Positions 16,941-49,272 of a stretch of 64,000 nucleotides of DNA are shown here, piece by piece (within the stretch, counting starts at the first letter, position 1; the number at the start of each line of letters is the position of its first letter). The translations under genes were made by a program, and so were the position numbers. The stretch is taken from the NCBI GenBank assembly GCA_963708025.1, contig CAVPSB010000018.1:192001-256000 (forward strand), in the 5' to 3' direction. The stretch is from an uncultured Candidatus Rokubacteria bacterium. GTDB lineage: Bacteria; Methylomirabilota; Methylomirabilia; Rokubacteriales; DASRDR01. Below the pieces are notes generated by a model that was not told the origin of the DNA, searched no databases, and was given only the letters and a program-made list of their open reading frames with translations.

Positions 16941-17067
16941 GCAACCCCCCTGGTCCGGCCGCGCGGCCGTGGCGTTCCACTTCGAGCCGCGGCCCAAAGG
17001 CCGAAGGCCGTCCAACAGTCGCGGCCTCCGAGGGGGGGCTTCGGGGGGTCTTCCAAGACCCCCCCGA
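16941..17067. repeat. Composite palindromic intergenic element (family C) hosting a GGCCGAAGGCC module
   Basis: Hairpin TCGGGGGGTCTT-cc-AAGACCCCCCCGA at 17041-17067 with a near-identical copy at 40371-40405; nested module at 16994-17015. Confidence 0.75.
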
Positions 17068-17072
17068 TGTTC

Positions 17073-18623
17073 TCACGGGTCCGGCTCGGGCTCCGACGCA
17101 GGCGTCTTCGGCATCTCGCCGGAGCCCCCCTCTCCTCCGGGCACCCACAGGATGATGCCGACGGGCCCCGCCGCGCCGATGCGGATCCGATAGCGGCTTC
17201 CCGCGTAGCCCGGGGGCAGCCGCGCGGCGAGGGCGTCCGGCCGCGAGCCGGCGCCGACATCTGGTGTGACGATCAGCGGAGAGAGGGTCTGGTCGCCGAC
17301 GTCGGATGGCGGGCTCGCGACCCAGCGGAGCCGCGGCAGGTCCCGGAGATACCAGGCGAGGAGCGGGTCGGCTCGCGGATCCCCCACGACACGGACCGGG
17401 CACTCGCGCGCGTCGCCGACCTGCCAAGCACAGAGTGACGCCGCGTCGGCCGCCAGCAGCCGGGCGCCCGCCTGCGTGGCCTCCCCTCGGGAGGGGGGCT
17501 GGAAGGCGTGGCGCAGTGTGAGGAGCAGGAGCACCGCGGCGCAGACGCCAGCTAGCCGGGCTCCTCGCGTGTGGAGCGCGACCCTCCGGGGCAGTCTCCC
17601 CACCACCTGAGCCGCGGCGAGGGCAAGCAGGAGGGTCAAGGGGAGCCGGCCCACGATGGTCGCCCGCTCGACCCACGCCATGGCCAGCGCCAGCCCGCAC
17701 GCGGCGAGCAGGATGATCCGGCGGCGCCAGGGCGCCGGGCTTGCCCGCTGCCACTCGATCGCCAGGCCCAGCAATCCCAGGCCCAGCGTGAGGGGCTGCT
17801 CGAGGACGAGCCGCTCCAGCAAGCTCAGCAGGCCAGGCAGCCCGGGGGGATCGAGCGACTGCGCGCTCCAGACGGTCAGGCTCATGCTCACCGCCGGCAG
17901 CCCCTGCCGCTGGATGAGGCCGGCGGTGGCCGCCAGGACCGCGCTGGCGGCCGTCACGCCGAGGAGGCGCCCGACGAGGCCGCGCTCGCGCGCCCGGCGC
18001 GCGCCGGCCGGGCTCGCCGCCGCGTCGAGCCACGCGCCGGCGCCCGCGAGTCCCAGGAGCAGCAGGAAGCTCCACGCCGCCGGCCCGCTGGCGACGAGCA
18101 GGCCGAAGGAGGCGGCCGCCGCCCGCAGCCACCGGCGTCGCTCGGCCTCGCCCGCGGCGTCGCCGGCCGTCGCGGCCCGCACGCGGACGACACACGCGAC
18201 GACCAGGAGAGCGCCGAGCGCGCTGGCGATGGCCCCGTCGGCGAGGCGGCTCGTCCCCACCAGCACGGGATCCACGGCGAGGACTCCGGCGAGGGCGAGA
18301 GTCGTCGCCCGGCCGATCACGGGCCGCACGAGCCAGGGCACGAGCACGACCGCGGTCCCGAGGGCGGCCGGCCACGCCCGGGCGAGCGCGTCCGTCCCGC
18401 TCCCGGCCAGCCAGAACAGCGCCCACTGCCCGACGAAGAGCAGCGCGCTCGCCGGCGGCCCACCGGGCGGGAGCGCGACCCCGCCGGTTTCCGTCGCCGC
18501 GACCCACCCCGGCCACGTGCTGGCCGCCTCCAGCAGCCCCAGGGGCTCGCGGGCGAGGTCGCGGAAGCGCAGCCCGGCGGCCACCGCCACCAGCAGCGCG
18601 CCGAGGAGCCTCTCCGTGGGCAT
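17073..18623 (-). CDS. Divergent TIGR03663-like multi-pass membrane protein
   Basis: Same N-terminal layout as its neighbour (LRFRDLAREPL..., ALARAWPAALG, SRLADG) and a shared C-terminal PLLAWYLRD; acidic motifs are degenerate. Confidence 0.7.
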   Translation of the reverse strand: MPTERLLGALLVAVAAGLRFRDLAREPLGLLEAASTWPGWVAATETGGVALPPGGPPASALLFVGQWALFWLAGSGTDALARAWPAALGTAVVLVPWLVRPVIGRATTLALAGVLAVDPVLVGTSRLADGAIASALGALLVVACVVRVRAATAGDAAGEAERRRWLRAAAASFGLLVASGPAAWSFLLLLGLAGAGAWLDAAASPAGARRARERGLVGRLLGVTAASAVLAATAGLIQRQGLPAVSMSLTVWSAQSLDPPGLPGLLSLLERLVLEQPLTLGLGLLGLAIEWQRASPAPWRRRIILLAACGLALAMAWVERATIVGRLPLTLLLALAAAQVVGRLPRRVALHTRGARLAGVCAAVLLLLTLRHAFQPPSRGEATQAGARLLAADAASLCAWQVGDARECPVRVVGDPRADPLLAWYLRDLPRLRWVASPPSDVGDQTLSPLIVTPDVGAGSRPDALAARLPPGYAGSRYRIRIGAAGPVGIILWVPGGEGGSGEMPKTPASEPEPDP

Positions 18624-18644
18624 CACGACCCACGGCGCCCGGCG

Positions 18645-28230: not shown

Positions 28231-29112
28231 TTACGTGGGACGTTCGGAGGCCGGGCGGCCGCGGCTGACGAGGGCGCGGGCGCTCGGGAAGAGGCGGAAG
28301 AGGGTTTCGTGGGGTGTCGTTTCCAGGAACGGCTCGACGAGCCGCTTCGTGTAGGCCGGGCTCCCCGCGAAGCGCACCTCGCCGGACGCGATCAGCGTGC
28401 CGTCGCCGGTCAGGAGGAGACCCTGAGCGCGAAGGTACCGGCCGCGCCGATCATCGTCCGGCCGAACGCCGGCCCGGTCGCCGATGACGAGGAGGGGCGC
28501 GAAGGGGAGCGGTCGCACGACCGTGACGGTGACCTCGGTGGTGACACCGCACTCCTGCTGCGCCAGCGCGCCGAGCCACCAGCCGAGCTCGTCGAGGGCG
28601 ATCGTGACCAGGGCGGGGTGCAGCGAGCCGTCGGCGGCGCGATAGGTGTCGCGGGGCGTGTACTCGCGCCAGAGAAACCGGTCATCGAAGGCGAACCGGA
28701 TCCCGAGGCCCAGGGCGTTGTCGGTGCCACAGGCCAGGCAGGTTGCGGTCGCCGGGACTTCAGCCAGCGGTTGCCTGCCCCGCCAGGCGTCGAGGATCGG
28801 CCGGGGGTCGATGGCAAGGACTGGCCCGCGCGCCAGCTCCGCCGCCGCCAGCCGGCGGTCTCCCTGGGCGAGCGCGAGCTGGGCCACGCTGCCGGCGCTC
28901 CCCGTCGTCAGCTGGAGCGGCGTCTCGGTGGGGACGCCGCGGAGCAGCTCCATGCGGAGCCGGACCGGCGGGCTCGGTGTGGTCACGCGGTAGAAGAGCC
29001 CAGCCACGGCACCCCCGTGGACCGTGCCGGGAAAGCCGTGGAAGTCGCGCGCGAACGTGACCTCGCCGAGCCCGGCGCCGGCGAGGGCCTCACGCAGCGC
29101 CGCTTCGATCAT
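28231..29112 (-). CDS. Double hot-dog fold (thioesterase-like) protein
   Basis: FHGFPGTVHGGAVA in the first domain; CLACG..NALGLG and ALDELGWW in a second PaaI-like domain. Confidence 0.7.
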   Translation of the reverse strand: MIEAALREALAGAGLGEVTFARDFHGFPGTVHGGAVAGLFYRVTTPSPPVRLRMELLRGVPTETPLQLTTGSAGSVAQLALAQGDRRLAAAELARGPVLAIDPRPILDAWRGRQPLAEVPATATCLACGTDNALGLGIRFAFDDRFLWREYTPRDTYRAADGSLHPALVTIALDELGWWLGALAQQECGVTTEVTVTVVRPLPFAPLLVIGDRAGVRPDDDRRGRYLRAQGLLLTGDGTLIASGEVRFAGSPAYTKRLVEPFLETTPHETLFRLFPSARALVSRGRPASERPT

Positions 29113-29174
29113 CGGGGGGCCGGCGCCACTAGAGTCTTTGCGCCAGAGCGGCGACAGATGAGTCAAGATCTCGG

Positions 29175-29394
29175 GGGCGGGGCCGAGGAGCGAGCAGCGC
29201 CCACAGGCCGAAGGCCGTCCAATGGACGCAGGGAGTCGCCGACCGGAGGCGTACTCCGAGTACGCCGAGGATCGGCGACGACCCCAACGGCCGAAGGCCG
29301 TCCGAACGACGACCGTAGGTCGGGACGGACGCGAGGCCGTAGGCCGAGCGCGTCACGACCGAGATGAACGTTGCGACGCTCATCGGCCCCGCCC
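29175..29394 (-). repeat. Structured repeat family A, copy 1 (long form)
   Basis: 12-bp terminal IR GGGCGGGGCCGA/TCGGCCCCGCCC; core GCGTAC-tccga-GTACGC; near-identical inverted copy at 33085-33315. Confidence 0.9.
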
Positions 29395-29395
29395 G

Positions 29396-30367: not shown

Positions 30368-33100
30368 ATGGCCAAGGCCCGGCTCGTCAGCGCGGCGCCG
30401 TCCGGTGCTCAACGGTGGTCCGGCGCGCCGGTCCTCCGCGAGGTGGGCTTCGACGTGATCGAGGTGGCATCCGCCGCCGAGGCGCTGCGGCTGGCCGCCG
30501 AGCAGCCCGAACTGATCCTGCTGGACGTCAGCCTCCCCGATCTCGACGGGATCGAGGTCGCGCGGCGCCTCAAGGCCGATTCCCGAACGGCCTCCATCCC
30601 GTTGCTGCTGCTGGCCGGCCCGGAGGCCGCGCACGCCACCCGGGCCCGCGCGCTCGAGGCGGGCGCCGACGGGTACCTCGCGCAGCCGGTCGCCGCCGCC
30701 GAGCTGCGGGCGGCCGTCGAGGGGCTTCTCCGTGTCCACCGGACCGAGGTCGAGCTGCGACGCAGCGAGGCGCGCTTCCAGAGCCTGGTCACCGAGGCCA
30801 GGCGCCAGGAGGCGGAGCGGACGGCCGCGCTCGCCCGCGAGCAGGCCGCACGCGCCGAGGCCGAGGCGGGCCAGGACCGCCTGGCGTTCCTGGCGGCGGC
30901 CAGCGAGATCCTGGCGTCGTCGCTCGAGTACCAGACCACCCTCGCGCGGGTCGCGCGGCTGGCGGTGCCCATTCTCGCCGACTGGTGCATCGTGCACCTC
31001 CTCGAGGAGGACGGCGCGCTGCGGGCCCTGGCGGCGGCCCACGCGGATCCGGCGAAGGCCGACCGGGCGTGGCAGCTCTGGCGGCGTCACCACGCCGAGC
31101 TGGGCGACAGCCACGGGCCGGCCCGGGTCCTCCACACCGGCGAGTCCGAGCTGTTCCCGGAGATCCCCGACGCGCTGCTCGCCGATGTCACCCGCGACGC
31201 CCGGCGCTTCGATGCGCTCAAGCTCCTCGGGCTGACCTCCTACATGTGCGTCCCGCTCCAGGCCCGCGGCCAGACCCTGGGGACCATGACCTTCGTCACC
31301 GCGGAATCCCGGCGCCGCTACCGGACCGTGGATCTCGCGCTGGCCCAGGACCTGGCCCGCCAGGCGGCGGTGGCGATCGACAACGCCCGGCTCTACCGCG
31401 ATGCGCAGGCGGCCACCCAGCTCGAGCGGGAGCGGACCGTCCAGCTCCGGCGCCTGGCCGAGGCCTACGTCGCCATCGGCTCCGCCGGGCGGCTCGACGC
31501 CATCGTGCGGGCGACGACCGAGCAGGCCCGCGCGATCATCGGGGCCCACCAGGCCGTGGGGGTGCTGCTCCCCGAGGGCACGGCGGCGGCGGGGATCACC
31601 GCCGTGTCGGTCTCGGACCGGGACGCGGGCCGGCGCGACGAGCGGGTCGGGGCGGACCCGCGGCTGGTGGCGCTGGTCCGCGAGGAGAATCGCCCGCTGC
31701 GCCTGACGGGGGCCGAGCTGGCCGGGCACCCGGCCTGGGCGAGCGCGCCGCCCGGCCCGGCCGGCGGGCTCGCCCTCGCGGGGTGCCTGGCCGCTCCGCT
31801 CCTCGGACGCGACGGGCGCACCGTCGGCGTGGTGCAGCTCTCCGAGCGCATCGAGGGCGAGTTCACCGAGCACGACGAGGCGATCCTGGTCCAGCTCGTG
31901 CAGGCCGCGTCGGTCGCGATCGACAACCTCCAGCTCTACCGGGAGACGGAGGCGGCGAGCCGCGCCAAGGACGAGTTCATCGCCACCCTCTCGCACGAGC
32001 TCCGCACCCCGCTCAACGCGATCGTCGGCTGGACCCAGGTGCTGCGCAGCCGTCTTCCCGCGACCGGCTCGTCCGGCCGCGCCCTGGAGTCGATCGAGCG
32101 GAATGCCCGGCTCCAGGCGCACCTCGTCGACGAGCTGCTCGACGTCGCCCGGATCATCACCGGCAAGCTCCACGTGGAGATCCGGCCGGTGGACCTGGGC
32201 CCGGTGGTGGAAGCGGCGGTGGACGCCAACCGCGCCAGCGCCGAGGCCCGGGGCGTTCGGCTCGACGTCCGGCCGGGGGCCGGGGGCCCACGCGTCATGG
32301 GCGATCCCTTTCGCCTCCAGCAGGTGGTCTCGAACCTGCTGTCGAACGCGGTCAAGTTCACCCTGGCTGGTGGCCGGGTGGACGTGCGGGTGGAGACCGG
32401 GGAGCACCACGTCGAGGTGCGGGTGCGCGACACCGGGCGCGGGATTCGCCCGGACTTCCTGCCGTACGTCTTCGAGCGGTTCCGCCAGGCGGAGAGCCGG
32501 GTCGCCGGCGAGAGCGGCCTCGGTCTCGGGCTCGCGCTCGTTCGTCGCCTCGTCGGGCTGCACGGGGGCAGCGTGCGGGCCGAGAGCGCCGGCGAGGGAC
32601 ACGGGGCCACCTTCACGGTGACGCTGCCGCTCGCGCCGACGGAGACCCCGGCCGACGCGCCCCGCGTCCCGTCCCAGCCGGCCGGGCTGGCGTCCCCGGT
32701 GGGAATGTTGCGCGGCATGCGGGTGCTGGTCGTGGACGACGATGCCGACACGCGGGGATGGCTGACCGCGGTGCTCGAGGACGGGGGGGCGGCGGTGACG
32801 GCGGTGGGGTCCACGCAGGAGGCGCTGTCGGCGCTCGAACAGCGGCCACCCCACGTGCTCATCGCCGACATCGCCATGCCGGACGAGGACGGGTACGCGC
32901 TCATTCGGAAAGTGCGGGCGATCCCGGCCGAGCGCGGCGGCCGGGTGCCGGCCCTCGCGCTGACGGCCTATGCCGGCGCCGAGGATCGGGAGCGGATCAT
33001 GTCGGCCGGCTTCGAGCAGCACGTGCCGAAGCCGGCGCAGCCGGCCGAGCTGATCGCGCTGATCGCCACGCTGGCCCGCCAGGCGGGGCGGGGCCGATGA
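30368..33100 (+). CDS. Cytoplasmic hybrid sensor histidine kinase (REC-GAF-GAF-HisKA-HATPase-REC)
   Basis: LSHELRTPL, NLLSNAVKFT, DTGRGI, GLGLGL; C-terminal VLVVDD..ADIAMPDEDG..KP. GGGAGG RBS before ATG 30368. Confidence 0.92.
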   Translation: MAKARLVSAAPSGAQRWSGAPVLREVGFDVIEVASAAEALRLAAEQPELILLDVSLPDLDGIEVARRLKADSRTASIPLLLLAGPEAAHATRARALEAGADGYLAQPVAAAELRAAVEGLLRVHRTEVELRRSEARFQSLVTEARRQEAERTAALAREQAARAEAEAGQDRLAFLAAASEILASSLEYQTTLARVARLAVPILADWCIVHLLEEDGALRALAAAHADPAKADRAWQLWRRHHAELGDSHGPARVLHTGESELFPEIPDALLADVTRDARRFDALKLLGLTSYMCVPLQARGQTLGTMTFVTAESRRRYRTVDLALAQDLARQAAVAIDNARLYRDAQAATQLERERTVQLRRLAEAYVAIGSAGRLDAIVRATTEQARAIIGAHQAVGVLLPEGTAAAGITAVSVSDRDAGRRDERVGADPRLVALVREENRPLRLTGAELAGHPAWASAPPGPAGGLALAGCLAAPLLGRDGRTVGVVQLSERIEGEFTEHDEAILVQLVQAASVAIDNLQLYRETEAASRAKDEFIATLSHELRTPLNAIVGWTQVLRSRLPATGSSGRALESIERNARLQAHLVDELLDVARIITGKLHVEIRPVDLGPVVEAAVDANRASAEARGVRLDVRPGAGGPRVMGDPFRLQQVVSNLLSNAVKFTLAGGRVDVRVETGEHHVEVRVRDTGRGIRPDFLPYVFERFRQAESRVAGESGLGLGLALVRRLVGLHGGSVRAESAGEGHGATFTVTLPLAPTETPADAPRVPSQPAGLASPVGMLRGMRVLVVDDDADTRGWLTAVLEDGGAAVTAVGSTQEALSALEQRPPHVLIADIAMPDEDGYALIRKVRAIPAERGGRVPALALTAYAGAEDRERIMSAGFEQHVPKPAQPAELIALIATLARQAGRGR

Positions 33101-33315
33101 GCGTCGCAACGTTCATCTCGGTCGTGACGCGCTCGGCCTACGTCGGGGCGGCCTCGGCGTCCGTCCCGACCTACGGTCGTCGTTCGGACGGCCTTCGGCC
33201 TTTGGGGTCGTCGCCGATCCTCGGCGTACTCGGAGTACGCCTGCGGTCGGCTCCTCCCTGTGTCGATCGGACAGCCTCCGGCCTTTGGGCGCTGCTCGCT
33301 CCTCGACCCCGCCCC
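33085..33315 (+). repeat. Structured repeat family A, copy 2 (long form); supplies the kinase stop codon
   Basis: Reverse-complement match to 29175-29394; TGA 33098-33100 lies inside the element. Confidence 0.9.
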
Positions 33316-33371
33316 CACGAACGTGACTCGTCTGCCATGGCCTTGGAGCTCCAAGGAGCCTAGCGGAGTAG

Positions 33372-36241: not shown

Positions 36242-36255
36242 CATTCGTAGCACCC

Positions 36256-36675: not shown

Positions 36676-36715
36676 GCGTGATCCACGCGCAGGCTCTGAG
36701 AGCGTGTGAAGGAAT

Positions 36716-36813
36716 GGGTCCTCCGACTCCCCCCTCCCCCCGGCCACAGGCCGAAGGCCGTCGAACGGTGGGGGAGGGGGGTTGGGGGTCGGGATGGGGC
36801 GGGAGGTCCCGAA
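36716..36813 (-). repeat. Palindromic repeat family B copy
   Basis: Minus strand begins TTCGGGACCTCCCGCC; a CCCCCTCCCC/GGGGAGGGGG stem holds the GGCCGAAGGCC module in its loop. Confidence 0.8.
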
Positions 36814-36830
36814 CTGAGGAGAGGCGCATC

Positions 36831-37109: not shown

Positions 37110-37112
37110 CCC

Positions 37113-38747: not shown

Positions 38748-38809
38748 CTAGCTAGCCCCGATTCCCTCTTTGGACGGTCTGCCCGCGATGGAAGCCGGCC
38801 GCGCCGGTG

Positions 38810-38818
38810 TGCTAGACT
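38810..38818 (+). promoter_or_regulatory. Extended -10 promoter of the sugar ABC operon
   Basis: TGCTAGACT (TGn-TAGACT). Confidence 0.45.
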
Positions 38819-38861
38819 TCCTGACGCTTCAAAGCCTTCGCTGAAGAGCCATGTTCTCCGG

Positions 38862-38985
38862 GGGCAGGGCCGAGGAGCGAGCAGCGCTAGGACGCAGGGA
38901 GTCGCCGACCGCAGGCGTACTCCGAGTACGCCGAGGATCGGCGACGACCGAGGACGACGCGCTGCGACGCTCATCGGCCCTGCCC
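38862..38985 (-). repeat. Structured repeat family A, short (core) copy
   Basis: Terminal IR GGGCAGGGCCGA/TCGGCCCTGCCC; same core as copies 1 and 2 without the inserted modules. Confidence 0.9.
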
Positions 38986-39009
38986 GCTCACTCGCACGGA
39001 GGAGACGCC

Positions 39010-40326
39010 ATGAGACTGCCCCGGTCGATCGCCGCCTGGCTCCTGGGATCGCTGCTCGCCGCCGCGCTCGTCGCACCCGGGGCCGGTGAGGCGGCTGGGC
39101 CCAAGGGCAAGGTCGTCATCTGGTACGACAGCGGGGCCGCCTGGAATCCCTTCATCACCGAGTTCAACAAGGAGCTGGCCAGCAAGTACCCGGACGTGAC
39201 CGTCGAGTGGGTCACCCAGGACGCGGCGCAGCTCTCGGCGAAGCTGGTCGCGGCGTTCGCGACGCGCCAGGGTCCGGACATCGCCCTGGGCTCCCAGTAC
39301 CGGCTGGTGCCGGTGGAGCAGCAGTTCAAGGCCTGGGCGGACCTCTCCGGCAAGCTCGCCTCCGATCCCGAGCTGAAGGAGATCGCCGGCGCCTTGCCGA
39401 AGGTCCACGTCGACGCGTACTACAGCGGAAAGAAGCTGTGGGGCCTGCCGCAGGTGATCCAGTCGGTCGGGCTCTTCGTCCGGAAGTCCTGGGCCGACAA
39501 GTTGAAGGCCCGGATGCCGGAGGACTGGGACGAGCTGACCACCCTCGCCGAGCGCTTCACGAAGGAGGATCCCGACGGGAACGGCCAGGCCGACACGTTC
39601 GGCTACTGCGTCTTCGGGGCGCCCGGGGTCACGAACAGCGCCGGGACCCAGTTCCTCTACAGCGCGGCGGCCGCCGGGATGCCCCATCCCATCGTGGACC
39701 CCGAGGGCAAGCCCTCGTTCAACACCGACGGGGGGCGCGAGGTGGCCAGGGCGCTCCGGCGCTGGCAGCACGAGAAGAAGGTGACCCCGCCGGCCACGCC
39801 GACCTTCACCCACAAGGAGTTCTACGAGATGGTCCAGGCCGGGAAGTGCGGGATCGGGCGCGTGGGGGCCTGGAACGTCGGCCCCTGGGCGAAGTCGGCG
39901 ATCGGCGAGGACTACGTCGTGATCCCGTACCCGCCAGCCAAGACCGCGCAGAAGGGGTACCAGGTCTCGTGGTCGAACGCCGTCGCGCTCAACGGGGCCT
40001 CGAAGGCCGAGGACGCGACCTACGCGGTCTTCAAGGCGCTCCTGGGCAAGAGCGGGCAGACGGCCTTCTACGACAAGCTCACGAGCTCGGCCCGGACCGA
40101 CCTCGACTGGGCGCGGCTCGCGACGAAGCCGCAACTCGCCTACTTCACCCGGCCGCAGGCCTACGCGCTGGAGATGACCTGGATCGACACCTGGCTGCCG
40201 GTCCTGGACATCCTCTCCCGGCACCTCAACGGCATGCTCGCCGACGCCCGGGTCGACCCCGTGAAGGCGCTGGCCGACGCCGACCGCGAGGCCCAGGCGA
40301 AGGTCGCGGAGATCCGGAAGAAGTAG
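39010..40326 (+). CDS. Carbohydrate ABC transporter substrate-binding protein
   Basis: Signal peptide; GPDI, KLWGLP, PEDWDEL, DPDGNGQADTFG; GGAGGAG RBS. Confidence 0.9.
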   Translation: MRLPRSIAAWLLGSLLAAALVAPGAGEAAGPKGKVVIWYDSGAAWNPFITEFNKELASKYPDVTVEWVTQDAAQLSAKLVAAFATRQGPDIALGSQYRLVPVEQQFKAWADLSGKLASDPELKEIAGALPKVHVDAYYSGKKLWGLPQVIQSVGLFVRKSWADKLKARMPEDWDELTTLAERFTKEDPDGNGQADTFGYCVFGAPGVTNSAGTQFLYSAAAAGMPHPIVDPEGKPSFNTDGGREVARALRRWQHEKKVTPPATPTFTHKEFYEMVQAGKCGIGRVGAWNVGPWAKSAIGEDYVVIPYPPAKTAQKGYQVSWSNAVALNGASKAEDATYAVFKALLGKSGQTAFYDKLTSSARTDLDWARLATKPQLAYFTRPQAYALEMTWIDTWLPVLDILSRHLNGMLADARVDPVKALADADREAQAKVAEIRKK

Positions 40327-40370
40327 CGGGCCGCCGCGCGGGACGCGCCGCCGCTTCCCGCGCCACGCCT

Positions 40371-40405
40371 GGGGGGATCCGGGGGGGTCTTCCGAGACCC
40401 CCCGA
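40371..40405. repeat. Palindromic repeat family C copy (SBP-permease intercistronic hairpin)
   Basis: GGGGGGTCT-tccg-AGACCCCCC, matching 17032-17067. Confidence 0.7.
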
Positions 40406-40417
40406 AGAAACGAGCCG

Positions 40418-41344
40418 GTGGGGCGATCGTCACGCGTCGCGGGGCCGGCAGCGGGTCGTCCGGCCCGCCTCGGACGGGAAGGCGTGCTCTACGCCTTCCT
40501 GGCGCCGATCCTGCTCCTGTATACCGTCTTCTCGCTCTATCCGATCGTGGAGACGTTCGAGCTGTCCTTCTTCGACGCCAAGATCGTCGAGCAGGGGCCG
40601 TTCGTGGGCCTGGCGAACTACCGCGACATCCTGGCGGCGCCCGGCTTCCGGCAGGCCCTGGGCAACACGCTCCTCTTCACGGCGGGCTCGACCGTTGCCG
40701 TCCTGGTGGTGGCGCTCGCCCTCGCGGTCCTGGTCAACATCCCCTGGGTTCGGGGGAAGACGGCGTTCAAGGTCGTCTTCTTCCTGCCGGTGGTCACGTC
40801 GCTGGTGGCGGTCGGCTACATCTGGAAGTGGATGATGGACCCGAGCTTCGGCGTCCTCAACGTGGCCCTGGCCGCGGGCGGGATCCGGCCCGGACCCAAC
40901 TGGCTCTCCAGTCCCGACCTGGCCCTCTGGTCTCTCGTCCTCGTGAACGTCTGGAAGTGGGTCGGGTACTTCCTGGTGATCTTGACCGCCAACCTCCAGG
41001 CCATCGACCGCGGCTACTACGAGGCGGCGGCGATCGACGGGGCCGGGGCCTGGGCGCAGTTCTGGCGGGTCACGCTGCCGCTCCTGCGGGCGGCGATCGT
41101 CCTGTCGGTGATCCTCGCGATCGTCAACTTCCTCAAGGCGTTCGCCCTGGTCTTCGTCATGACCCAGGGGGGGCCGGCGGGGCGGACCGAGCTGATCGCG
41201 ACCTACGTCTACCGCGAAGCCTTCGGGACCGGCCAGCTCCGCTTCGGCTTCTCGGCAGCGGCCTCGATGGTCCTGTTCCTCCTCATCATGGTCGGCACCG
41301 TCCTCGCGAACCGGTCGGGCCGGGCGGGAGAGGTCGCGCTGTGA
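40418..41344 (+). CDS. Carbohydrate ABC transporter permease 1
   Basis: FVGLANY; EAA loop YYEAAAIDGAGAWAQFWRVTLP; MTQGGP. Confidence 0.92.
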   Translation: MGRSSRVAGPAAGRPARLGREGVLYAFLAPILLLYTVFSLYPIVETFELSFFDAKIVEQGPFVGLANYRDILAAPGFRQALGNTLLFTAGSTVAVLVVALALAVLVNIPWVRGKTAFKVVFFLPVVTSLVAVGYIWKWMMDPSFGVLNVALAAGGIRPGPNWLSSPDLALWSLVLVNVWKWVGYFLVILTANLQAIDRGYYEAAAIDGAGAWAQFWRVTLPLLRAAIVLSVILAIVNFLKAFALVFVMTQGGPAGRTELIATYVYREAFGTGQLRFGFSAAASMVLFLLIMVGTVLANRSGRAGEVAL

Positions 41345-42192
41345 CCCGCCGGCGGCGGCTCGGGTGGCGGGACGGGGCGGCCCGGATCGTCGTGTACGGG
41401 CTGCTCGGTCTCGCCGCGCTCGCGATGGCGTTTCCCTTCTACTGGATGGTGGTCACCACCGTGCGGCCCGAGCGCGAGGCCTACAGCGTCGCGCTGAGCC
41501 TCTGGCCCTCCCGGCTGTCCCTCGACGTCTACCGCAAGCTCCTCGCCGACCCGCAGCTCCCGGTCGTGCGGTTCTTCCTGAACAGCCTGATCATCGCCAC
41601 CGGCGCCACCGTCGCCAACGTCGGGACCGCGGTCCTCGCCGCCTTCGCGCTGGGCCGCCACGCCATCCCGGGCGGAGCCCTCGCGTACTACGCCATCGTG
41701 GCCACCATGATGGTGCCGGGGGAGGTGGTGCTGATCGGCCTGTTCCGGGTCGTCAACGCCCTCGGGCTGATCGACACGTACCTCGGCATGCTCCTCCCGC
41801 TGGCCGTGAACGCCGTGAACTTCCTGTTGATCTACAACTACATGCGGGCGCTGCCGCGGGAGCTCGACGAGGCGGCCCGCGTGGACGGCGCGACGAGCTG
41901 GCAGCAGCTCTGGCACGTGATGCTCCCGCTGTCCCGCCCCGTCCTCTACAGCGCCATGCTGCTGGCGTTCCTGGCCGCCTGGCAGAACTTCACGATCCCC
42001 TACCTCCTCGCCCAGAGCAACGCCATGTACCCGCTGGCGGTGGGCGCCCTGTTCACCGAGAGCACCCTCATGGCCACCAAGCAGGAGACGCTCACGCTCG
42101 CGACCATCCTCACGGTTCCCACCCTGCTCGTCTTCGTCCTCACGCAGCGGTTCGTCTTCTCCGGCATCACCGCCGGCGCGGTCAAGGGCTGA
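41341..42192 (+). CDS. Carbohydrate ABC transporter permease 2
   Basis: FPFYWM, FLNSL, LPRELDEAARVDGA; ends GAVKG; GTGA overlap. Confidence 0.92.
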   Translation: MTRRRRLGWRDGAARIVVYGLLGLAALAMAFPFYWMVVTTVRPEREAYSVALSLWPSRLSLDVYRKLLADPQLPVVRFFLNSLIIATGATVANVGTAVLAAFALGRHAIPGGALAYYAIVATMMVPGEVVLIGLFRVVNALGLIDTYLGMLLPLAVNAVNFLLIYNYMRALPRELDEAARVDGATSWQQLWHVMLPLSRPVLYSAMLLAFLAAWQNFTIPYLLAQSNAMYPLAVGALFTESTLMATKQETLTLATILTVPTLLVFVLTQRFVFSGITAGAVKG

Positions 42193-42197
42193 CCGGG

Positions 42198-43895
42198 ATG
42201 ACGGTGGAGGCCTCGATCCGGGTCGACGCCGAGCGGTGGCGGGGACCCCTCCGGCGCATCTGGGCCAGCATCGGCTACGACGAGATCAACTGGACCTACA
42301 CCGGACGCGGGAAGGCCCTCTACGCCACGCTGGGAGAGCTGGCCGAGGTGCCCTACCACGTCCGCAACCACAACGCCCTCACCAGCGGCAACGGCCTCTC
42401 GGAGCCCGCCCGCGGGTCCAGCAACGTCTACCAGGAGCGGCCCGACGGGACCCCGGCCTTCGACTTCGCCATCCTGGACCGGCTGTACGACACGATCACC
42501 GGCGCCGGGTTCCGGCCCATCGTCGAGCTGGGCTTCCTGCCCCGCGACCTGGTGCCGGTCGAGGTGGTGCCCGCCGGCTGGCGGCGGGACGTGGGCCGGG
42601 AGACGTACGAGGCGGACGGGCTCTGGAAATCCCCCCCGAAGGACCACGCTCGGTGGGAGGAGCTGGTGTACCAGGTCGTCCGGCACTGCGTCGAGCGCTA
42701 CGGACCGCGGACGGTGGAGCGCTGGCACTTCGAGGTGTGGAACGAGCCCGACCTCCCGAACTACTGGCGCGGCTCCTTCGAGGACTACTGCCGCCTCTAC
42801 GACCACGCGGTGGCGGGGGCGACCCGGGCCCTCCCGTCGGTCCGGATCGGCGGCCCGGCCACCACCGGCCCCGGGGACCCGGCGGCCCGGGAGTACCTGC
42901 GGCGGTTCCTCGAGCACTGCGGGTCGGGTCGCAACGCGGTGACCGGAGGGAAGGGCACCCGGCTCGACTTCGTGTCGTTCCACACCAAGGGCGCCCACTA
43001 CTCCCGGCGCCGGATCTACAACTGGCAGGCGCCGGTCGAGCGGGAGAGCCCGTCGAGCGCGTCGATGCTGCGCGACATCCGGGCCGGGCTGGAGACGGTC
43101 GCCGCCTTCCCGGCGCTCGGGGGACGCCCGGTCCTCGTCGACGAGTGCGACCCCGCGGTGGGGACGATCTACGGCGTCCACGACAACCCGAACTTCGCCG
43201 TGACCAACACCGAGTACTACCCGACGTTCCTCTGTGCCCTGATCCGGCGCGTCCTCGACCTCGACGCCGACTTCGGCGATCGGATCGCGCTGGTCACGAC
43301 CTGGGCGTTCTACATGGAGGGGAAGCGCTTCTTCGAGGGGAACCGGACGCTCGTCACCAACGACAACGTCGAGAAGCCGATCGTGAACGGGCTCCGCATG
43401 CTCGCCCGGCTCGGCGAGACGCGCCTGGACGTCGAAGCGTCCCACCGCCGGGACGTGCTGGGACCCGGCGCGGCGGACGCCGAGGTCGACGCGCTGGCCG
43501 CCGTCGCCGGAGAGCGGGTCACCGTGCTCGCCTGGCACCAGAGCGACCCGTGGTGGACCGAGGGCGCGGCCGAGGTCCACCTGACGGTGGCGGGGCTGCC
43601 GTTCGAGGGCCCGGCCCGCGTCCGGCACTGGCGCATCGACGGCGCCCACTCGAACGCGCACGGCGAGTGGGTGCGGCTGGGGCGTCCCGAGACCCCGTCG
43701 CCGGCCCAGGTCGCCCGGCTCAGGCGCCGTCAGGGCCTCGAGCTCCTGGAGCCGTCGCGTGTCGTGGTCCCGCCGCGGCGGACCCTCGAGTACCGGTTCC
43801 GGCTGCCGCTCCACGCGACCTCCCTGCTGGAGATCGAGCCGGCGACCGGGGCCCGGCCCGCCGCTCGCCGGCGCCGCCGCGCGCCCGGGGCGTGA
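42198..43895 (+). CDS. Glycoside hydrolase family 39 (beta-xylosidase-like), no signal peptide
   Basis: RPIVELGFLP, FEVWNEPD (acid/base), DFVSFHTKG, VDECDP (nucleophile), WRIDGAHSN. Confidence 0.88.
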   Translation: MTVEASIRVDAERWRGPLRRIWASIGYDEINWTYTGRGKALYATLGELAEVPYHVRNHNALTSGNGLSEPARGSSNVYQERPDGTPAFDFAILDRLYDTITGAGFRPIVELGFLPRDLVPVEVVPAGWRRDVGRETYEADGLWKSPPKDHARWEELVYQVVRHCVERYGPRTVERWHFEVWNEPDLPNYWRGSFEDYCRLYDHAVAGATRALPSVRIGGPATTGPGDPAAREYLRRFLEHCGSGRNAVTGGKGTRLDFVSFHTKGAHYSRRRIYNWQAPVERESPSSASMLRDIRAGLETVAAFPALGGRPVLVDECDPAVGTIYGVHDNPNFAVTNTEYYPTFLCALIRRVLDLDADFGDRIALVTTWAFYMEGKRFFEGNRTLVTNDNVEKPIVNGLRMLARLGETRLDVEASHRRDVLGPGAADAEVDALAAVAGERVTVLAWHQSDPWWTEGAAEVHLTVAGLPFEGPARVRHWRIDGAHSNAHGEWVRLGRPETPSPAQVARLRRRQGLELLEPSRVVVPPRRTLEYRFRLPLHATSLLEIEPATGARPAARRRRRAPGA

Positions 43896-43935
43896 CGCTC
43901 CCGAGGGGCCCGGTCGGCCGCTCGGCGACTCCGTG

Positions 43936-43944
43936 TGCTATAAT
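43936..43944 (+). promoter_or_regulatory. Consensus extended -10 promoter
   Basis: TGCTATAAT about 75 nt upstream of the ABC operon, conspicuous in high-GC DNA. Confidence 0.65.
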
Positions 43945-44018
43945 TCCTCGCCGAAGGACCGCTTGACGTCTTCAGGAAAGCCCTTGACGCCGGTCGCGAC
44001 CCAATTGATGGAGCGCAC

Positions 44019-45014
44019 ATGATCGAGGTCGACCGCCTGACGAAGTACTACGGAGCCACGCCCGCCATCCAGGACGTGTCCTTCTCGGTGGAGAAGGGGT
44101 CGATCGTCGGCTTCCTCGGCCCCAACGGGGCCGGGAAGACGACGACGATGCGCATCCTGTCCTGCTTCATGCCGGCCTCGAGCGGCGTCGCCCGGGTGGC
44201 CGGCTACGACTGCTTCGAGCAGTCCCTGGAGGTCCGCAAGCGGATCGGCTACCTCCCCGAGAACGTCCCGCTGTACGGCGACATGACGGTGGCCGCCTAC
44301 CTCGACTTCGTCGGCGACATCAAGGGGCTGGGGCGGGCAGACCGGCGGCGCCGGGTCGGCGAGGTGATGGCGCGCTGCCTGATCGAGGACGTCCGGGGCC
44401 GCCTGATCGGTCGCCTCTCCAAGGGCTACCGGCAGCGGGTCGGCCTGGCCCAGGCGCTCGTCGCCGACCCCGAGGTCTTGATCCTCGACGAGCCGACGAT
44501 CGGGCTCGACCCCAAGCAGATCATCGAGATCCGGTCGCTCATCAAGTCCCTGGCCGGCGCGCACACCGTCATCCTGTCCACCCACATCCTCCCCGAGGTC
44601 TCGATGGTCTGCGACGGTGTCATCATCATCAACCGGGGCCGGATCGTCGCCAAGGGCCCGCTCGACCGGCTGATGCGGGAGCTGGCGCCGGGCCAGCGGG
44701 TGCAGCTCCAGGTGGAGGGGCCGCTCGAGCTGGTCGCCGCGTCGCTGCGAGCGCTCCCGGGCGTGACCCGGGTCGAGACCCGTGGCGGGGCCGACGGGGT
44801 CGGGACCTTCGTGGTCGAGGCCGACCGCGCCCGGGACGTCCGGCGCGACCTGTTCCAGCTCGTGAGCCAGCAGCGCTGGGCGCTCCTCGAGCTGCGGCCG
44901 CTCGGGCTCTCGCTGGAGGACGTCTTCATCCGGATCGTGGCCGGCGAGGAGCACGAGGCGACGGCCGATCAGGCGGCGGCCGCCGACAGCACCGAGGAGG
45001 TGGAGGCGCGATGA
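44019..45014 (+). CDS. ABC transporter ATP-binding protein (GldA-like)
   Basis: GPNGAGKTT, LSKGYRQRVGLAQA, ILDEPT, STHIL. Confidence 0.92.
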   Translation: MIEVDRLTKYYGATPAIQDVSFSVEKGSIVGFLGPNGAGKTTTMRILSCFMPASSGVARVAGYDCFEQSLEVRKRIGYLPENVPLYGDMTVAAYLDFVGDIKGLGRADRRRRVGEVMARCLIEDVRGRLIGRLSKGYRQRVGLAQALVADPEVLILDEPTIGLDPKQIIEIRSLIKSLAGAHTVILSTHILPEVSMVCDGVIIINRGRIVAKGPLDRLMRELAPGQRVQLQVEGPLELVAASLRALPGVTRVETRGGADGVGTFVVEADRARDVRRDLFQLVSQQRWALLELRPLGLSLEDVFIRIVAGEEHEATADQAAAADSTEEVEAR

Positions 45015-45778
45015 GGGTCTGGGCGGTCTTCAAGAAGGAGATGCGGCTGTACTTCAGCTCGCCCATCGCGTACGTGGTCTTCGCCATCTTCACGCTGATC
45101 GCCGGCTGGTTCTTCTACAACGTCTTCGCCTACTACACCCTCATCAGCATGCAGTCGGCCATGAATCCCATGATGGCCCGCGACATGTCGGTCACCGAGG
45201 GCGTGCTGCGGCCGCTCTTCCAGAACATCAGCGTGATCCTGCTCTTTCTGCTGCCGCTCCTCACCATGCGGCTCTTCGCCGAGGAGAAGAAGAGCGGCAC
45301 CATCGAGCTCCTGCTGACCTATCCGGTCCGCGACGGCGAGGTGCTGATGGGCAAGTACCTGGCCGCCCTGGCCGTCTTCGTGGTGATGCTCACGCTGACG
45401 CTCCTCTACCCCGCGCTGGTGGCGTGGGCGACCTCGCTCGAGTGGGGCCCCCTGGCCACCGGCTACCTCGGCCTCCTCCTCCAGGGCGCGGTCTTCATCG
45501 GCATCGGGATCCTCATCTCGTCGCTCACCGAGAACCAGGTGGTGGCCGGCGTGGGGACCTTCGGCATCCTCCTGTTCCTGTGGGTCATCTCGTGGGCCGC
45601 GGACTCGGCCGGCGGCACCCTGGGCCGCGTCCTCTCCCACGTGTCGGTGACGGAGCACTTCGACTCGTTCGCCCGGGGCGTCATCGACACCAAGGACGTC
45701 ATCTACTACCTGAACCTGATCATCCTGAGCCTGTTCCTGACGCTCCGCTCGCTCGAATCGAAGCGGTGGCGAGGGTAG
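45011..45778 (+). CDS. ABC-2 type permease (GldF-like)
   Basis: YFSSPIAY, TMRLFAEEKKSGTIELLLT, SSLTENQ, HFDSFARG. Confidence 0.9.
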   Translation: MRVWAVFKKEMRLYFSSPIAYVVFAIFTLIAGWFFYNVFAYYTLISMQSAMNPMMARDMSVTEGVLRPLFQNISVILLFLLPLLTMRLFAEEKKSGTIELLLTYPVRDGEVLMGKYLAALAVFVVMLTLTLLYPALVAWATSLEWGPLATGYLGLLLQGAVFIGIGILISSLTENQVVAGVGTFGILLFLWVISWAADSAGGTLGRVLSHVSVTEHFDSFARGVIDTKDVIYYLNLIILSLFLTLRSLESKRWRG

Positions 45779-45782
45779 GACC

Positions 45783-47345
45783 ATGCAGCGATTCGCGACC
45801 CCCGCGCTCCTCCTCGGCCTGATCGGCATCGCCGCCGGCTATGCCTTGCGCTTCTATCGCCCCTCCTGGACGGCCGCCTGGCCGGCGGCGCTGATCGTCG
45901 GCGGCCTGCTGCTCCTGTTCGGGCTCTACGCCAGCTTCCCGAACGCCCGCTCGGTCTGGGGCCGGCGGACGACCCGGTACGGGCTGAACGCCGCGGTCAT
46001 GATCGTCCTCATCTTCGGCGTGATCGCGCTGGTGGAGGCGGTGTCCTATCGCCACAACTGGCGGGTCGACCTCACCGAGAACAAGCGGCAGAGCCTGTCG
46101 CCCCAGACCGCCAAGGTGCTCAAGGAGCTGAAGGCGCCGGTCAAGGCCATCGCGTTCCTGCGGCCCGACATCCCGGGCAAGCGGACGACCGAGGACCGGC
46201 TGAAGCTCTACGCCGCCAACTCGGACGGGAAGTTCTCGTGGGAGACCATCGACGCGGACAGCAACCCGCTCCGGGCGACCCGGTACGGCGTCACGACCTA
46301 CGGCACCATCGTGCTGGAAGCCGAGGTGAAGAAGGGCGAGGTCCGGGAGGAGAAGGTCCAGGACGCGGAAGAGGAGACCCTGACCAACGCGCTGATTCGC
46401 GTGACCCGCGAGGGCAAGCGCGTCGTGTACTTCCTCAAGGGCCACGGCGAGAAGGAGCTGGCCGGCAACGAGCGGAACGGCCTGTCCCAGCTCAAGGCGG
46501 CCCTCGAGAAGGTGAACTACGAGACGAAGGACCTCCTGCTGGCCCGCGAAGCGAAGGTGCCGGACGACGCCGGGATCGTCGTGGTGGCGGGTCCCGAGAA
46601 GGACCTGCTGCCGAACGAGATGGATGCCCTGGCGGGCTACGTCGGCCGGGGCGGCCGACTCTTGCTGATGGCGGATCCCTTCAAGGCCCCGGGACTCGGG
46701 GGGCTGGTCGAGCGCTACGGCATCGGGCTCGACAACGACGTGATCATCGACGTGAGCGGGCTGGGCCAGATGTTCAACACCGGCCCCGAGGTCCCCATCG
46801 TCGCCGACTACCCGGCGCACCCCGTCACCCAGGGGTTCCGCCTGATCACGGCGTTCCCGGTCGCCCGCAGCATCACCGTGAAGGAGAAGCCGGCGGAGGG
46901 GGTCACGGCACAGGTCCTGGCACGGACGAGCCCGGAGAGCTGGGGCGAGACCAACCAGGAGCAGATCAAGACGGGGCAGGTGAAGCCGGATCCCGGCGAG
47001 ACGAGGGGCCCGCTGGCGGTCGCCGCCGCCGCCACCGTCAACGTCAAGGCCACGCACGCGGACCAGAAGGGCGCGAAGGCGCGGCTGGTCGTCGTCGGCG
47101 ACTCGGACTTCGCCTCGAACCTAGCCTTCAACGCCCAGGGCAACCGGGACTTCGTCCTCAACATCCTGGCCTGGCTGGCCGGCGAGGAGAACGTGATCTC
47201 GATCCGGCCCAAGGACGCGCGCAACTCTCCGGTCTTCCTCACCGCCACCCAGGGCTACGTCCTCTTCTGGCTGCCGGTCGTCGTGCTGCCGATCGCGATG
47301 ATCGTGGCCGGCGTGGTGGCGGTCGCGCAGAAGCGGGGCAAGTAG
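45783..47345 (+). CDS. GldG-family ABC auxiliary protein
   Basis: DLTENK..SLS, VYFLKGHGE, VVVGDSDF, NRDFVLN; C-terminal TM. Confidence 0.88.
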   Translation: MQRFATPALLLGLIGIAAGYALRFYRPSWTAAWPAALIVGGLLLLFGLYASFPNARSVWGRRTTRYGLNAAVMIVLIFGVIALVEAVSYRHNWRVDLTENKRQSLSPQTAKVLKELKAPVKAIAFLRPDIPGKRTTEDRLKLYAANSDGKFSWETIDADSNPLRATRYGVTTYGTIVLEAEVKKGEVREEKVQDAEEETLTNALIRVTREGKRVVYFLKGHGEKELAGNERNGLSQLKAALEKVNYETKDLLLAREAKVPDDAGIVVVAGPEKDLLPNEMDALAGYVGRGGRLLLMADPFKAPGLGGLVERYGIGLDNDVIIDVSGLGQMFNTGPEVPIVADYPAHPVTQGFRLITAFPVARSITVKEKPAEGVTAQVLARTSPESWGETNQEQIKTGQVKPDPGETRGPLAVAAAATVNVKATHADQKGAKARLVVVGDSDFASNLAFNAQGNRDFVLNILAWLAGEENVISIRPKDARNSPVFLTATQGYVLFWLPVVVLPIAMIVAGVVAVAQKRGK

Positions 47346-47351
47346 GCGGTC

Positions 47352-49115
47352 ATGCGCTGGAAGACGAACGCCGTCCTGGCGGTCCTCCTGATCGGGCTGG
47401 CGACCTTCTTCTACGTGTACGAGGTCCGGCAGGGGCCGGCCCGGGAGAAGGCCACCACCGACAAGGATCGGGTCTGGAAGAGCGTCGAGGCGAAGGACAT
47501 CGAGGAGGTGGCCATCACCCGGAAGGGTGAGACCGTCCAGCTCAAGAAGTCCGGGGAGGCCTGGACGCTGGAGTCCCCGGTCCAGAGCCGGGCCGAGTCC
47601 CAGCCGGTCCAGGACCTGCTGACCTCCCTGGCCACGCTGCGGATCGAGCGGGAGCTCGACCCGAACGCCGGGAAGCTGTCCGATTACGGCCTCGAAGCCC
47701 CGGCCGCCGACGTCGCCTTCAGCGCCAAGGGCGAGAAGCACCGGGTCTGGCTCGGCGCGAAGACCCCGACCGGCACCTGGGTGTACGCCCGGCTGGATGA
47801 CAAGCCCGCCGTCGTCCTGGTCCCCGACTCGCTGCTCCGGGACGCCGAGAAGCCGGTGGCCGACTTCCGGGACCGGACCGTGATCGCCTTCGAGCGGAAG
47901 GACGTCAAGGGGCTCGAGATCAAGACGCCGGGCGGCCCGAGCGTGGCGGCCCAGCTCAAGGGCGACCAGTGGGCGCTGACCAGCCCGCTGGCGGTGGCCG
48001 CCGACCGGGACCAGATCTCCTCGCTCCTCGACAAGGTGAAGGCCGCCAAGATCAAGGAGTTCGTGACCGAGCCGCCGCCGAAGACCCCGGATCCCTACGG
48101 CCTCGAGCGCCCGCTGGCGGTGACCTTGTGGCTCGGGGAAGAGAAGGACCGCGCGGCCCGGACCCTCCGGCTCGGCAAGGCGATCCCCGACAAGAAGGTG
48201 GTCTACGCCCAGCGCGAGGGCGACCCGACCGTCTTCACCGTGGAAGACGCGCTGGTGCAGGCGGTGCCGACCTCCGCCACCGCGCTCCGGGACAAGACGG
48301 TCTTCACCTACGACCGGGGGAAGCTCGAGCGGTTCGAGCTGGAGAGCCCGAAGGGGAAGGTCGCCGCGACGATCGAGGGCGGCGCCTGGAAGCTCACCGC
48401 CCCGGCCCCGCTCAAGGCCGACGAGTCCACGATCAACGAGCTGCTCGGGAAGGTCCGCGACCTCCGGGCCAAGGACTTCGTCGCCGAGGACGCCAAGGCC
48501 CTGGCCCGCTACGGTCTGGATCACCCCCAGGTTCGGCTCTCGGTGTGGGAGAAGGACGCCAAGGAGCCGAAGAGCCTCCTGCTGGCGCCGGGCAAGGAGA
48601 AGGACCAGGCCTACGCGACGACCTCCACCGGGGGCGTGGTCGTGGCGGTGGACGCCAAGGCTCTCGCGGACCTGTCGCGCTCGCCCCAGGACCTGCGCGA
48701 CCACTCGCTCTTCGCCGGCTTCGACCCCGGCGACGTCGCCAAGGTCGCCATCCAGCGGAAGGACCAGACGCTGGTCCTGGAGCGCACGGGTCCGGAGGAC
48801 TGGAAGCTCGTGGCCCCCAAGAGCGGCAAGGCGCGCGGCCAGAAGGTGAGCGACCTCCTCTGGACCCTGCGGAGCCTCCGGTGGCGCGACCTCGTCGCGG
48901 AGCAGGGCTGGGAGCCGGCCCGCTACGGCCTGGACGCCCCGGCGGCGACGATCACGCTCACCGGCAAGGACGGCAAGACGATCGGGGCGCTTGCCATCGG
49001 CGGTCGCGACAAGGGTGACGCCTACGTCCGGCTGCCCGACCAGCCCGCGCTCTACGCGGTCGAGTCCCGGACCCTGGGCGAGCTGCCCGCCACCCCCGAA
49101 GACCTGCTCCTCTGA
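47352..49115 (+). CDS. DUF4340-domain protein (three repeats)
   Basis: N-terminal anchor; repeated YGLxxP and (F/L)RD units; typical position after GldG. Confidence 0.85.
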   Translation: MRWKTNAVLAVLLIGLATFFYVYEVRQGPAREKATTDKDRVWKSVEAKDIEEVAITRKGETVQLKKSGEAWTLESPVQSRAESQPVQDLLTSLATLRIERELDPNAGKLSDYGLEAPAADVAFSAKGEKHRVWLGAKTPTGTWVYARLDDKPAVVLVPDSLLRDAEKPVADFRDRTVIAFERKDVKGLEIKTPGGPSVAAQLKGDQWALTSPLAVAADRDQISSLLDKVKAAKIKEFVTEPPPKTPDPYGLERPLAVTLWLGEEKDRAARTLRLGKAIPDKKVVYAQREGDPTVFTVEDALVQAVPTSATALRDKTVFTYDRGKLERFELESPKGKVAATIEGGAWKLTAPAPLKADESTINELLGKVRDLRAKDFVAEDAKALARYGLDHPQVRLSVWEKDAKEPKSLLLAPGKEKDQAYATTSTGGVVVAVDAKALADLSRSPQDLRDHSLFAGFDPGDVAKVAIQRKDQTLVLERTGPEDWKLVAPKSGKARGQKVSDLLWTLRSLRWRDLVAEQGWEPARYGLDAPAATITLTGKDGKTIGALAIGGRDKGDAYVRLPDQPALYAVESRTLGELPATPEDLLL

Positions 49116-49120
49116 GATTT

Positions 49121-49272
49121 TCGGGACCTCCCGCCCACCCGATCCTTCGACGGCCTTCGGCCTTTGGCCCCCCTCCCGTCTGACCGGATCGCCGGGACGG
49201 CTCGGGCCTGCGGCCCTCGCGGCGTCCCGCCCTCCGGCGGCCACTGGGGGGAGGGGGGAGCCGGAGGTCCCC
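49121..49272 (+). repeat. Palindromic repeat family B copy (expanded)
   Basis: GGGACCTCC 49123-49131 pairs with GGAGGTCCC 49263-49271; nested GGCCTTCGGCC module at 49146-49167. Confidence 0.8.

Follow-up and report, generated by a model that had tools for sequence, protein, structure and literature searches.

A 21-nucleotide GGCC-GAA-GGCC cassette nested inside older palindromic repeats of a Rokubacteria genome

Known small palindromic repeats and the Rokubacteria module

The repetitive extragenic palindromic (REP) sequences, the bacterial interspersed mosaic elements (BIMEs) and the REPIN-RAYT systems of Pseudomonas and E. coli are short, extragenic, imperfectly palindromic repeats that occur in hundreds of copies. 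We investigated a repeat of this type in an uncultured Candidatus Rokubacteria bacterium, both in a window of 64,000 nucleotides (positions 192,001 to 256,000 of contig CAVPSB010000018.1, assembly GCA_963708025.1; window positions are counted from its first letter) and in the genome to which the window belongs. The repeat, hereafter the module, is a 21-nt cassette with a GGCC-GAA-GGCC hairpin, and it occupies recurrent unpaired positions (slots) of larger repeats (hosts). Like REPs and BIMEs, it lies mostly downstream of genes, is scarce in divergent spacers, forms mosaics with other motifs and builds tandem arrays. The likeness to BIMEs extends to variable module content, with 11 of 12 slot combinations present in host A, and to tandem expansion up to 18.7 units. 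The repeat architecture is real and striking, and REP/BIME-like.

The module also differs from each of these systems. REPs are defined by an unpaired GTAG or CGTC head next to a stem of at least about 8 bp (PMC3733652), whereas the module has a stem of only 4 bp in a unit of 21 nt and no GTAG head. Unlike REPINs, modules within one host A or C always share the same orientation and their arrays run head-to-tail, with no inverted pairs. Unlike REPs that accompany a RAYT, the module has no RAYT in its genome, and its copies are embedded in other repeats instead of standing free in spacers. It is set apart from miniature inverted-repeat transposable elements (MITEs) by its size (21 nt against 70-300 bp), by the lack of a target duplication and by the absence of its core near six IS110-type loci, and from IS200/IS605 elements by the lack of a PF01797 match and of a fixed left target word.

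Insertion of one palindrome into another has been described before. In three species, other palindromes regularly contain inserted REPs, each time with a small palindromic repeat at the centre of the larger one; in T. roseum, hundreds of empty targets are also present (PMC3733652). The authors of that work state that they did not study REP-in-palindrome insertion closely. Compared with the nested REPs that they describe, here a single cassette occupies at least ten slots in at least five older, unrelated hosts, at junctions as well as at tips; nesting reaches four levels, and the direction of gain is given by module-free sister genera. The same paper reports CGTC-tagged REPs with an unpaired 5' head, a stem of 8-9 bp starting with A/T pairs, a loop of 4-5 nt and a 3' CCA tail, for which no dedicated transposase is known (PMC3733652). 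The words CGTC and CCA both occur in the module; there, however, CCA stands at the 5' side, CGTC overlaps the 3' end of the 4-bp GGCC stem, and the loop has 3 nt.

Hirao and colleagues reportedly described DNA mini-hairpins of extraordinary stability, d(GCGAAGC), which have GNA triloops. The C:G-closed GAA triloop of the module resembles them, and the GTA and GCA tips of other hosts also fit GNA; the mini-hairpin, however, is a structural motif and not a repeat family, and a nearest-neighbour model gives the module only -3.4 kcal/mol. We observed that GNA triloops closed by C:G recur in unrelated repeats of this genome, namely as GGCC-GTA-GGCC, GGCC-GCA-GGCC and the empty tip of host B, GC-TTC-GC, which is GC-GAA-GC on the opposite strand. 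Our literature search returned no account of the 11-nt module core, GGCCGAAGGCC, as a repeat, its matches being primers or unrelated sequences, and found no relevant work on palindromic repeats of Rokubacteria.

Abundance, nesting and filled and empty slots

The genome scanned comprises 8.17 Mb at 71.2% GC in 49 contigs, with an estimated completeness of 99.67% and contamination of 8.18%. The core GGCCGAAGGCC was found 634 times exactly, against about 31 occurrences expected from base composition; GTC follows directly 3' in 516 of these, and 486 match CCnnA-core-GTC. A regular expression for the extended module, allowing a GAA or a GGA loop, returned 541 copies spread over most contigs, and the abundance first noticed in the window thus holds genome-wide. 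An exact 19-mer of the module occurred 390 times (190 on the plus strand, 200 on the minus strand), and its backwards control gave 0 matches. Within the window, the core occurs six times exactly and 20 times with at most one mismatch, while dinucleotide shuffles of the window contained 6.24 +/- 2.43 such near matches (maximum 12) and reached 20 in 0 of 100 cases. The consensus is CC-AMA-GGCC-GAA-GGCC-GTC-SR (21 nt), which folds into a C:G-closed 4-bp GGCC stem around a GAA triloop; with nearest-neighbour DNA parameters, the hairpin alone has a z-score of -1.69. The position profile showed CC-AMA 5' and GTC 3' of the stem, whereas the left flank was mixed from -6 to -14, and no conserved target word was found at those positions.

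We classified 539 copies by their flank signatures (541 minus two close to contig ends); single-linkage clustering of flanks merged all copies, as the flanks hold other modules, and signature classes were used instead. The results showed that seven recurrent slots take 471 of the 539 copies: C1 (147), C2 (91), A1 (77), A2 (60), D (40), B (37) and C3 (19). Nearly all of the remaining 68 are host variants, recombinants, tandem copies or modules in the slots of E and F hairpins, and only a handful lie in non-repeat surroundings, such as two chance-looking matches inside coding sequence. The module therefore has at least five host families (A, B, C, D and E), possibly with F as another. Their folds are long hairpins or multi-branched structures, with the module at a tip (B, C1) or at an unpaired junction (A1, A2, C2). 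A perfect stem of at least 6 bp closes immediately around approximately 35% of copies, compared with 6.6% of 2000 random intergenic controls. Nesting extends to as many as four levels, for example a module within E within C, or within D within A. The Russian-doll arrangement in unrelated hosts, proposed in the original prediction from the window, was thereby borne out. The wording "inside a hairpin loop" was rejected as too narrow: only about one third of copies sit at true tips, and we therefore speak of an unpaired slot of a structured host, which fits better.

Filled and empty alleles of the same slot were then compared. Host A was located through its central hairpin alone, yielding 189 copies. 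Its first slot (A1) is empty, with 3 nt, in 86 copies (TAG in 80), filled, with 24 nt, in 73, and doubly filled, with 45 nt, in four. Slot A2 measures 4 nt empty and 25 nt filled, and the tip of the D hairpin 8 and 29 nt. Host B has about 90-200 copies in the genome and host C about 350. The B tip holds 6 nt in 55 empty copies (CTTCGC in 34) and 27 nt in about 31 filled ones, and C1 measures 7 and 28 nt (search counts for C1 are doubled, as both strands match). The difference is exactly 21 nt in all five slots (A1, A2, D, B and C1) and equals the period of the tandem arrays. The module is a separable unit that adds 21 nt per slot. Exact-insertion alleles were present in C1 (..GTCCA|TGG, nine copies) and in A1 (..GTCCG|AAG, 22 copies), AAG being one of the natural slot triplets in a sister genus, g5. 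The replacement of 3-nt segments noted in the original prediction is an appearance that comes from residual loop bases, which in many filled alleles differ from the empty allele. No target-site duplication was found at the slot junctions examined (A1, A2, D, B and C1).

The placement of the module relative to genes was assessed with genes predicted by an ad hoc caller (GC3/GC2 log-odds; 6879 open reading frames (ORFs) covering 76% of the genome). The module lies mostly inside a predicted ORF in 25 of 541 cases, chiefly at ORF edges, and more than 95% of copies are outside predicted genes. Among spacers between genes, 305 of 4238 co-directional and 48 of 780 convergent ones contain it, compared with only 19 of 830 divergent ones. 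Host C is in sense orientation in 197 of 207 copies and host A is antisense in 138 of 151 (138:13, scored against co-directional neighbours), and the module has opposite polarities relative to transcription, sense in C hosts and antisense in A and B hosts. As a measure of replication-strand bias, local GC skew was weak, with gene direction agreeing in only 369 of 621 cases, and was a poorer predictor than gene direction. At C13:43416-43490, three modules of one C host fall within an open frame of 1296 aa, which may be a real gene or two bridged genes.

Gain of the module, routes of spread and rival explanations

The exact 19-mer was found in 14 of 15 genomes of g5, with 6-62 copies each. The other five genera of the family, represented by one genome each, lacked it, as did 20 genomes drawn from the order's other families. 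All five module-free genera carry host A in module-free form, contiguous across both slots (40-42 scored matches each), and module-free host B (28-45 matches); host C is present in four of them (g2 43, g3 12, g4 3, g7 1, g6 0). No GGCCGAAGGCC-type core occurred in the host loci fetched from these genera. Because hosts A, B and C are multi-copy and module-free in genera that lack the module, the conclusion that the hosts are older and more widespread, and that the filled state is a derived gain, is well supported. An ancestral module that was later deleted, the alternative named in the original prediction, does not agree with genera that already hold the hosts without it.

In a scan of one genome per species, the 19-mer was mostly in Rokubacteria/Methylomirabilota metagenome-assembled genomes (MAGs), which accounted for 43 among the 64 matches listed; another 18 were single occurrences in different high-GC taxa, and three came from one further bacterium. 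The module was present in 0 of 80 loci on metagenome contigs (JGI) around homologues of a 910-aa neighbour protein, the best of which had 57% identity. Contigs of relatives from four public sets, compared with window positions 29100-49099, stop at the repeats (approximately 29372, 33092, 36814-36827 and 38985); they offered no orthologous slot for scoring, and a loose end with an empty slot-2 form at 29308 could stem from any A copy.

Host A is a conserved structured element found in all seven genera of the family, with about 190 copies in this genome. In an alignment from 12 genomes, it has 42 base pairs, 18 of them with compensatory changes, and invariant unpaired linkers, AGGACGCAGG and CCGAGGACG. 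It is antisense to co-directional neighbours (138:13), yet its G-U type pairs lie on the antisense strand. No Rfam match to host A was found.

We also examined the context of the module in g5, using 42 distinct sites from eight genomes. At 26 of these, the module stands at the 5' end of an intercistronic element of about 75 nt, laid out as an upstream stop, the module, a conserved stretch with GGAG, and GTGAGC starting the next gene. This element is no strong hairpin (z -0.12, 0.51 and -2.77 for three copies). Other sites are in A-, C3- and D-like hosts. Additional half-units, in the form of CCACAGGCCG and GGCCGTCCGATCAA repeats, are frequent in the intercistronic element, which resembles an insert tailored to overlapping stop/start junctions. 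The claim that the module is found only nested in palindromes is therefore the rule in the Rokubacteria genome studied here and not intrinsic to the module, given its non-palindromic sites in g5.

We give about even credence to the following explanation, which ranks first among those considered, that a lineage-specific 21-nt cassette within a REP/BIME-like mosaic spread mainly passively after few founding insertions. On this account, older structured intergenic repeats shared across the family received the cassette in a limited set of their unpaired slots, at tips and at multi-branch junctions, where it would add a small extra arm and leave the host fold unbroken. The founding entries were probably illegitimate events, for example a template switch at a stalled hairpin. 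Subsequent multiplication could have taken three routes: co-amplification with the hosts, exchange or recombination between host copies that shuffles filled and empty alleles, and replication slippage that produces 20/21-nt tandem arrays. Occupancy of loops only may reflect tolerance by the host fold rather than targeting.

Tandem arrays and recombinant hosts were both observed. Forty-four copies adjoin another module in tandem, with a 20/21-nt unit. Tandem Repeats Finder (TRF) reported a period of 21 and 18.7 copies in slot 2 of one divergent A copy (L212 286-683; G000:C15:314285-314682), in which slot 1 and the D slot are doubly filled. In at least 13 A copies, the left arm of slot 1 leads through a single module to the right arm of slot 2 or D, and the core between is lost. 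These shortened copies, with the outer stem joined through one module and no central hairpin, lie, for example, at C12:17440, C12:136877, C15:188989 and C18:352015; they have the form that recombination of a slot-1 cassette with a slot-2 or D cassette would be expected to leave.

The distribution of filled slots among host copies was examined in host A. Across its three slots, 11 of 12 combinations of empty and filled states are present, and slots 1 and 2 are partly associated (odds ratio 4.5). A tree was built from host-only columns for the 156 of 189 A copies with both slots scored. Slot-state changes on this tree matched those obtained with shuffled labels (51 vs 51.0, 46 vs 45.6 and 47 vs 47.3), while held-out variable host columns did cluster on it (six tested, all at the outer edge of the element). 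Fill rates were also alike in a host A subfamily marked by three linked substitutions and in the copies compared with it (33 vs 112 copies; p=0.69 and p=1).

The module variants were specific to slots. The dominant combinations are CCACA with CGAAG or CAATG in A1, CCAAA with CGAAC in A2, CCCCA with CGATC in D, CCAAA with CAACA in B, and CCAAA with GAAGG in C2. Slot specificity gave chi2 values of 249 for the 5' variant and 902 for the tail, although the copies are related and the p-values overstate the association. These slot-specific variants point to few founding events, and they fit later spread together with the host better than continual retargeting from one pool. A 24-nt unit moving whole between slots was considered and has no support, as the tail and the 5' variant do not move as a pair.

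Several observations weigh against a mainly passive spread. First, slot state is only weakly linked to nearby host single-nucleotide polymorphisms (p 0.01-0.09). Second, most filled alleles have residual loop bases unlike those of the empty allele, for example ATG, AAG or ACA in place of TAG, indicating that many filled and empty alleles are not related by simple insertion. Third, across 73 anchor-defined slot-1 inserts, the 14-nt core varies by 1.2% per site, positions 3-4 by 20% and the 5-nt tail by 29%, while the host flanks vary by 3.9-5.8% (3.9% in filled A copies and 5.8% in empty ones); this low core and high tail variation suggests constraint, homogenisation or junction-generated diversity rather than hitch-hiking. 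Fourth, we infer the recombination or gene-conversion route from allele patterns, and it would involve exchange between dispersed repeats of 130-230 nt. Finally, the increment is a constant 21 nt in at least five unrelated slots, each of which takes the cassette in a single orientation; this speaks for a defined insertion process, which passive spread leaves unexplained here.

A rival explanation, the model of the original prediction, is an active, non-autonomous mini-element. A trans-acting enzyme (RAYT/HUH or unrecognised) would recognise the GGCC-GAA-GGCC hairpin and place the 21-nt unit in unpaired loops where single-stranded DNA has folded. We regard this as unlikely, though it accounts for a good deal: the derived gain in at least ten slots spread over five or more unrelated hosts (A1, A2, D, B, C1, C2, C3, two in E, and F), the increment that is always 21 nt, the unpaired position of every slot, the independence of fill state from host lineage, the other module contexts in g5, and the hypervariable tail next to the cassette, as would arise from imprecise junctions. 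The search for an enzyme gave a different result. The original prediction had envisaged a TnpA(REP)/HUH gene flanked by the motif, and no such gene was found: PF01797 (Y1 HUH, which includes RAYTs) had 0 matches in this 99.67%-complete genome, which holds by far the most copies. Nine of the 15 g5 genomes do carry one PF01797 copy each, which speaks for an active element, but no module lies within 1.5 kb of the Y1 gene in the four loci read (4/4), and one g5 genome (G016) has 36 exact module copies and no Y1 match. This single-copy gene of g5 encodes a 313-aa Y1-transposase-like protein in G010 (L038 1459-2400), with no module nearby. In the Rokubacteria genome, RVT_1 and the TnpB TNB domain each had 0 matches, and IS110-type genes had seven, with the core within 1.5 kb in 0 of the six loci fetched. 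RAYT, TnpB, reverse transcriptase and IS110 were thus rejected as mobilisers, none of them being linked to the module. An active element is further opposed by the lack of a conserved left target word and of a target duplication, by slot-specific variants that speak against a common donor pool, and by the opposite polarity in C and in A/B hosts, which leaves no single genome-wide strand rule.

A further possibility, to which we assign a low probability, is that an unrecognised non-HUH activity copies the 21-nt cassette into unpaired loops or junctions of folded repeat DNA or RNA, with variable junction bases. If true, such an activity would amount to structure-targeted mobility of a bacterial repeat unit smaller than any so far, and REP-like sequences could spread by it without a transposase.

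The module could instead be a functional site maintained by selection, with loop positions that reflect its function. It might be bound by a lineage-specific DNA- or RNA-binding protein, or it might cap and stabilise host hairpins through its C:G-closed GNA triloop. This explanation fits the lower variation of the core, unpaired CC, A and GTC included, compared with the host flanks (1.2% against 3.9-5.8%); it also fits the strong orientation of the hosts (C 197/207 sense, A 138/151 antisense), their depletion in divergent spacers (19/830 against 305/4238 co-directional), the compensated pairs of host A across genera (18/42) and the GGCC-GYA-GGCC form of other host tips. It is nevertheless improbable in our judgement, as about half of each host family and five whole genera lack the cassette, transcripts would contain GAA where the host is C but UUC where it is A or B, long arrays (up to 18.7 units) resemble slippage rather than function, and the hairpin alone is weak (-3.4 kcal/mol).

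An assembly or binning artefact, or chance in a GC-rich genome, might be suspected from the 49 contigs and the 8.18% estimated contamination, but it retains practically no probability and is already refuted by 541 copies on most contigs, a backwards control of 0, and the presence of the module in many independent Rokubacteria/Methylomirabilota MAGs (43 among the 64 matches listed) and in 14 g5 genomes.

Copies in the window and implications

All seven module copies that had been predicted in the window were recovered at their coordinates and strands (7/7). On the plus strand, a filled host B element at 16936..17067 carries the module CCAAAGGCCGAAGGCCGTCCAA at its hairpin tip (16994..17015). 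A host A element on the same strand at 29173..29394 has both slots filled, the first by a CCACAGG..CAA module at 29201..29222, between GAGCAGCGC and GACGCAGG, and the second by a CCAAC variant (CCAACGG..CGAA) at 29284..29306; it also includes a D hairpin at 29318..29360, whose tip is GGCC-GTA-GGCC and whose own slot is empty. A second host A element, on the minus strand at 33083..33316, likewise has both slots filled and a degenerate D hairpin, with a module in slot 2 (33183..33205) and a variant module with a GGA loop and a GGCT arm in slot 1 (33267..33288). The plus-strand host A element at 38860..38988 is empty in both slots (TAG, CGAG) and lacks the D hairpin. The module-free family-A copy described earlier at 38862-38985 is therefore real, with TAG and (C)GAG, or CTA and CTC on the other strand, at the module positions.

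In host C, a C-run/G-run hairpin precedes a G-rich tail that contains several runs of G3-G7; this host has several hundred copies in the genome and sits just upstream of the start of the next gene. The plus-strand copy at 36697..36813 bears a module (CCACAGG..GAA) at the hairpin tip, slot 1 (36744..36765), and its slot 2 is empty. The minus-strand copy at 49120..49275 has an E hairpin (49178..49245, tip GGCC-GCA-GGCC) in slot 1 and a module in slot 2 (49146..49167), both also on the minus strand; elsewhere in the genome, the E hairpin bears up to two modules. A search with Rfam 15 gave 0 matches at gathering score over the whole window and 0 at E<=1 over 36650-39050, with sub-threshold matches only at 16900-17120.

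These findings bear on how REP-like palindromes multiply where no RAYT is present, which is an open question (Di Nocera et al. 2013, PMC3733652). The arrival of the module is datable, because five sister genera have the hosts but not the module. Hundreds of filled and empty alleles, together with exact-insertion, tandem and recombinant forms and no HUH enzyme, make this lineage an unusually clean natural experiment for such spread. Multi-level hairpin-in-hairpin DNA of this kind breaks short-read assemblies. The hosts, especially family A with its compensated stems across genera, merit study in themselves.

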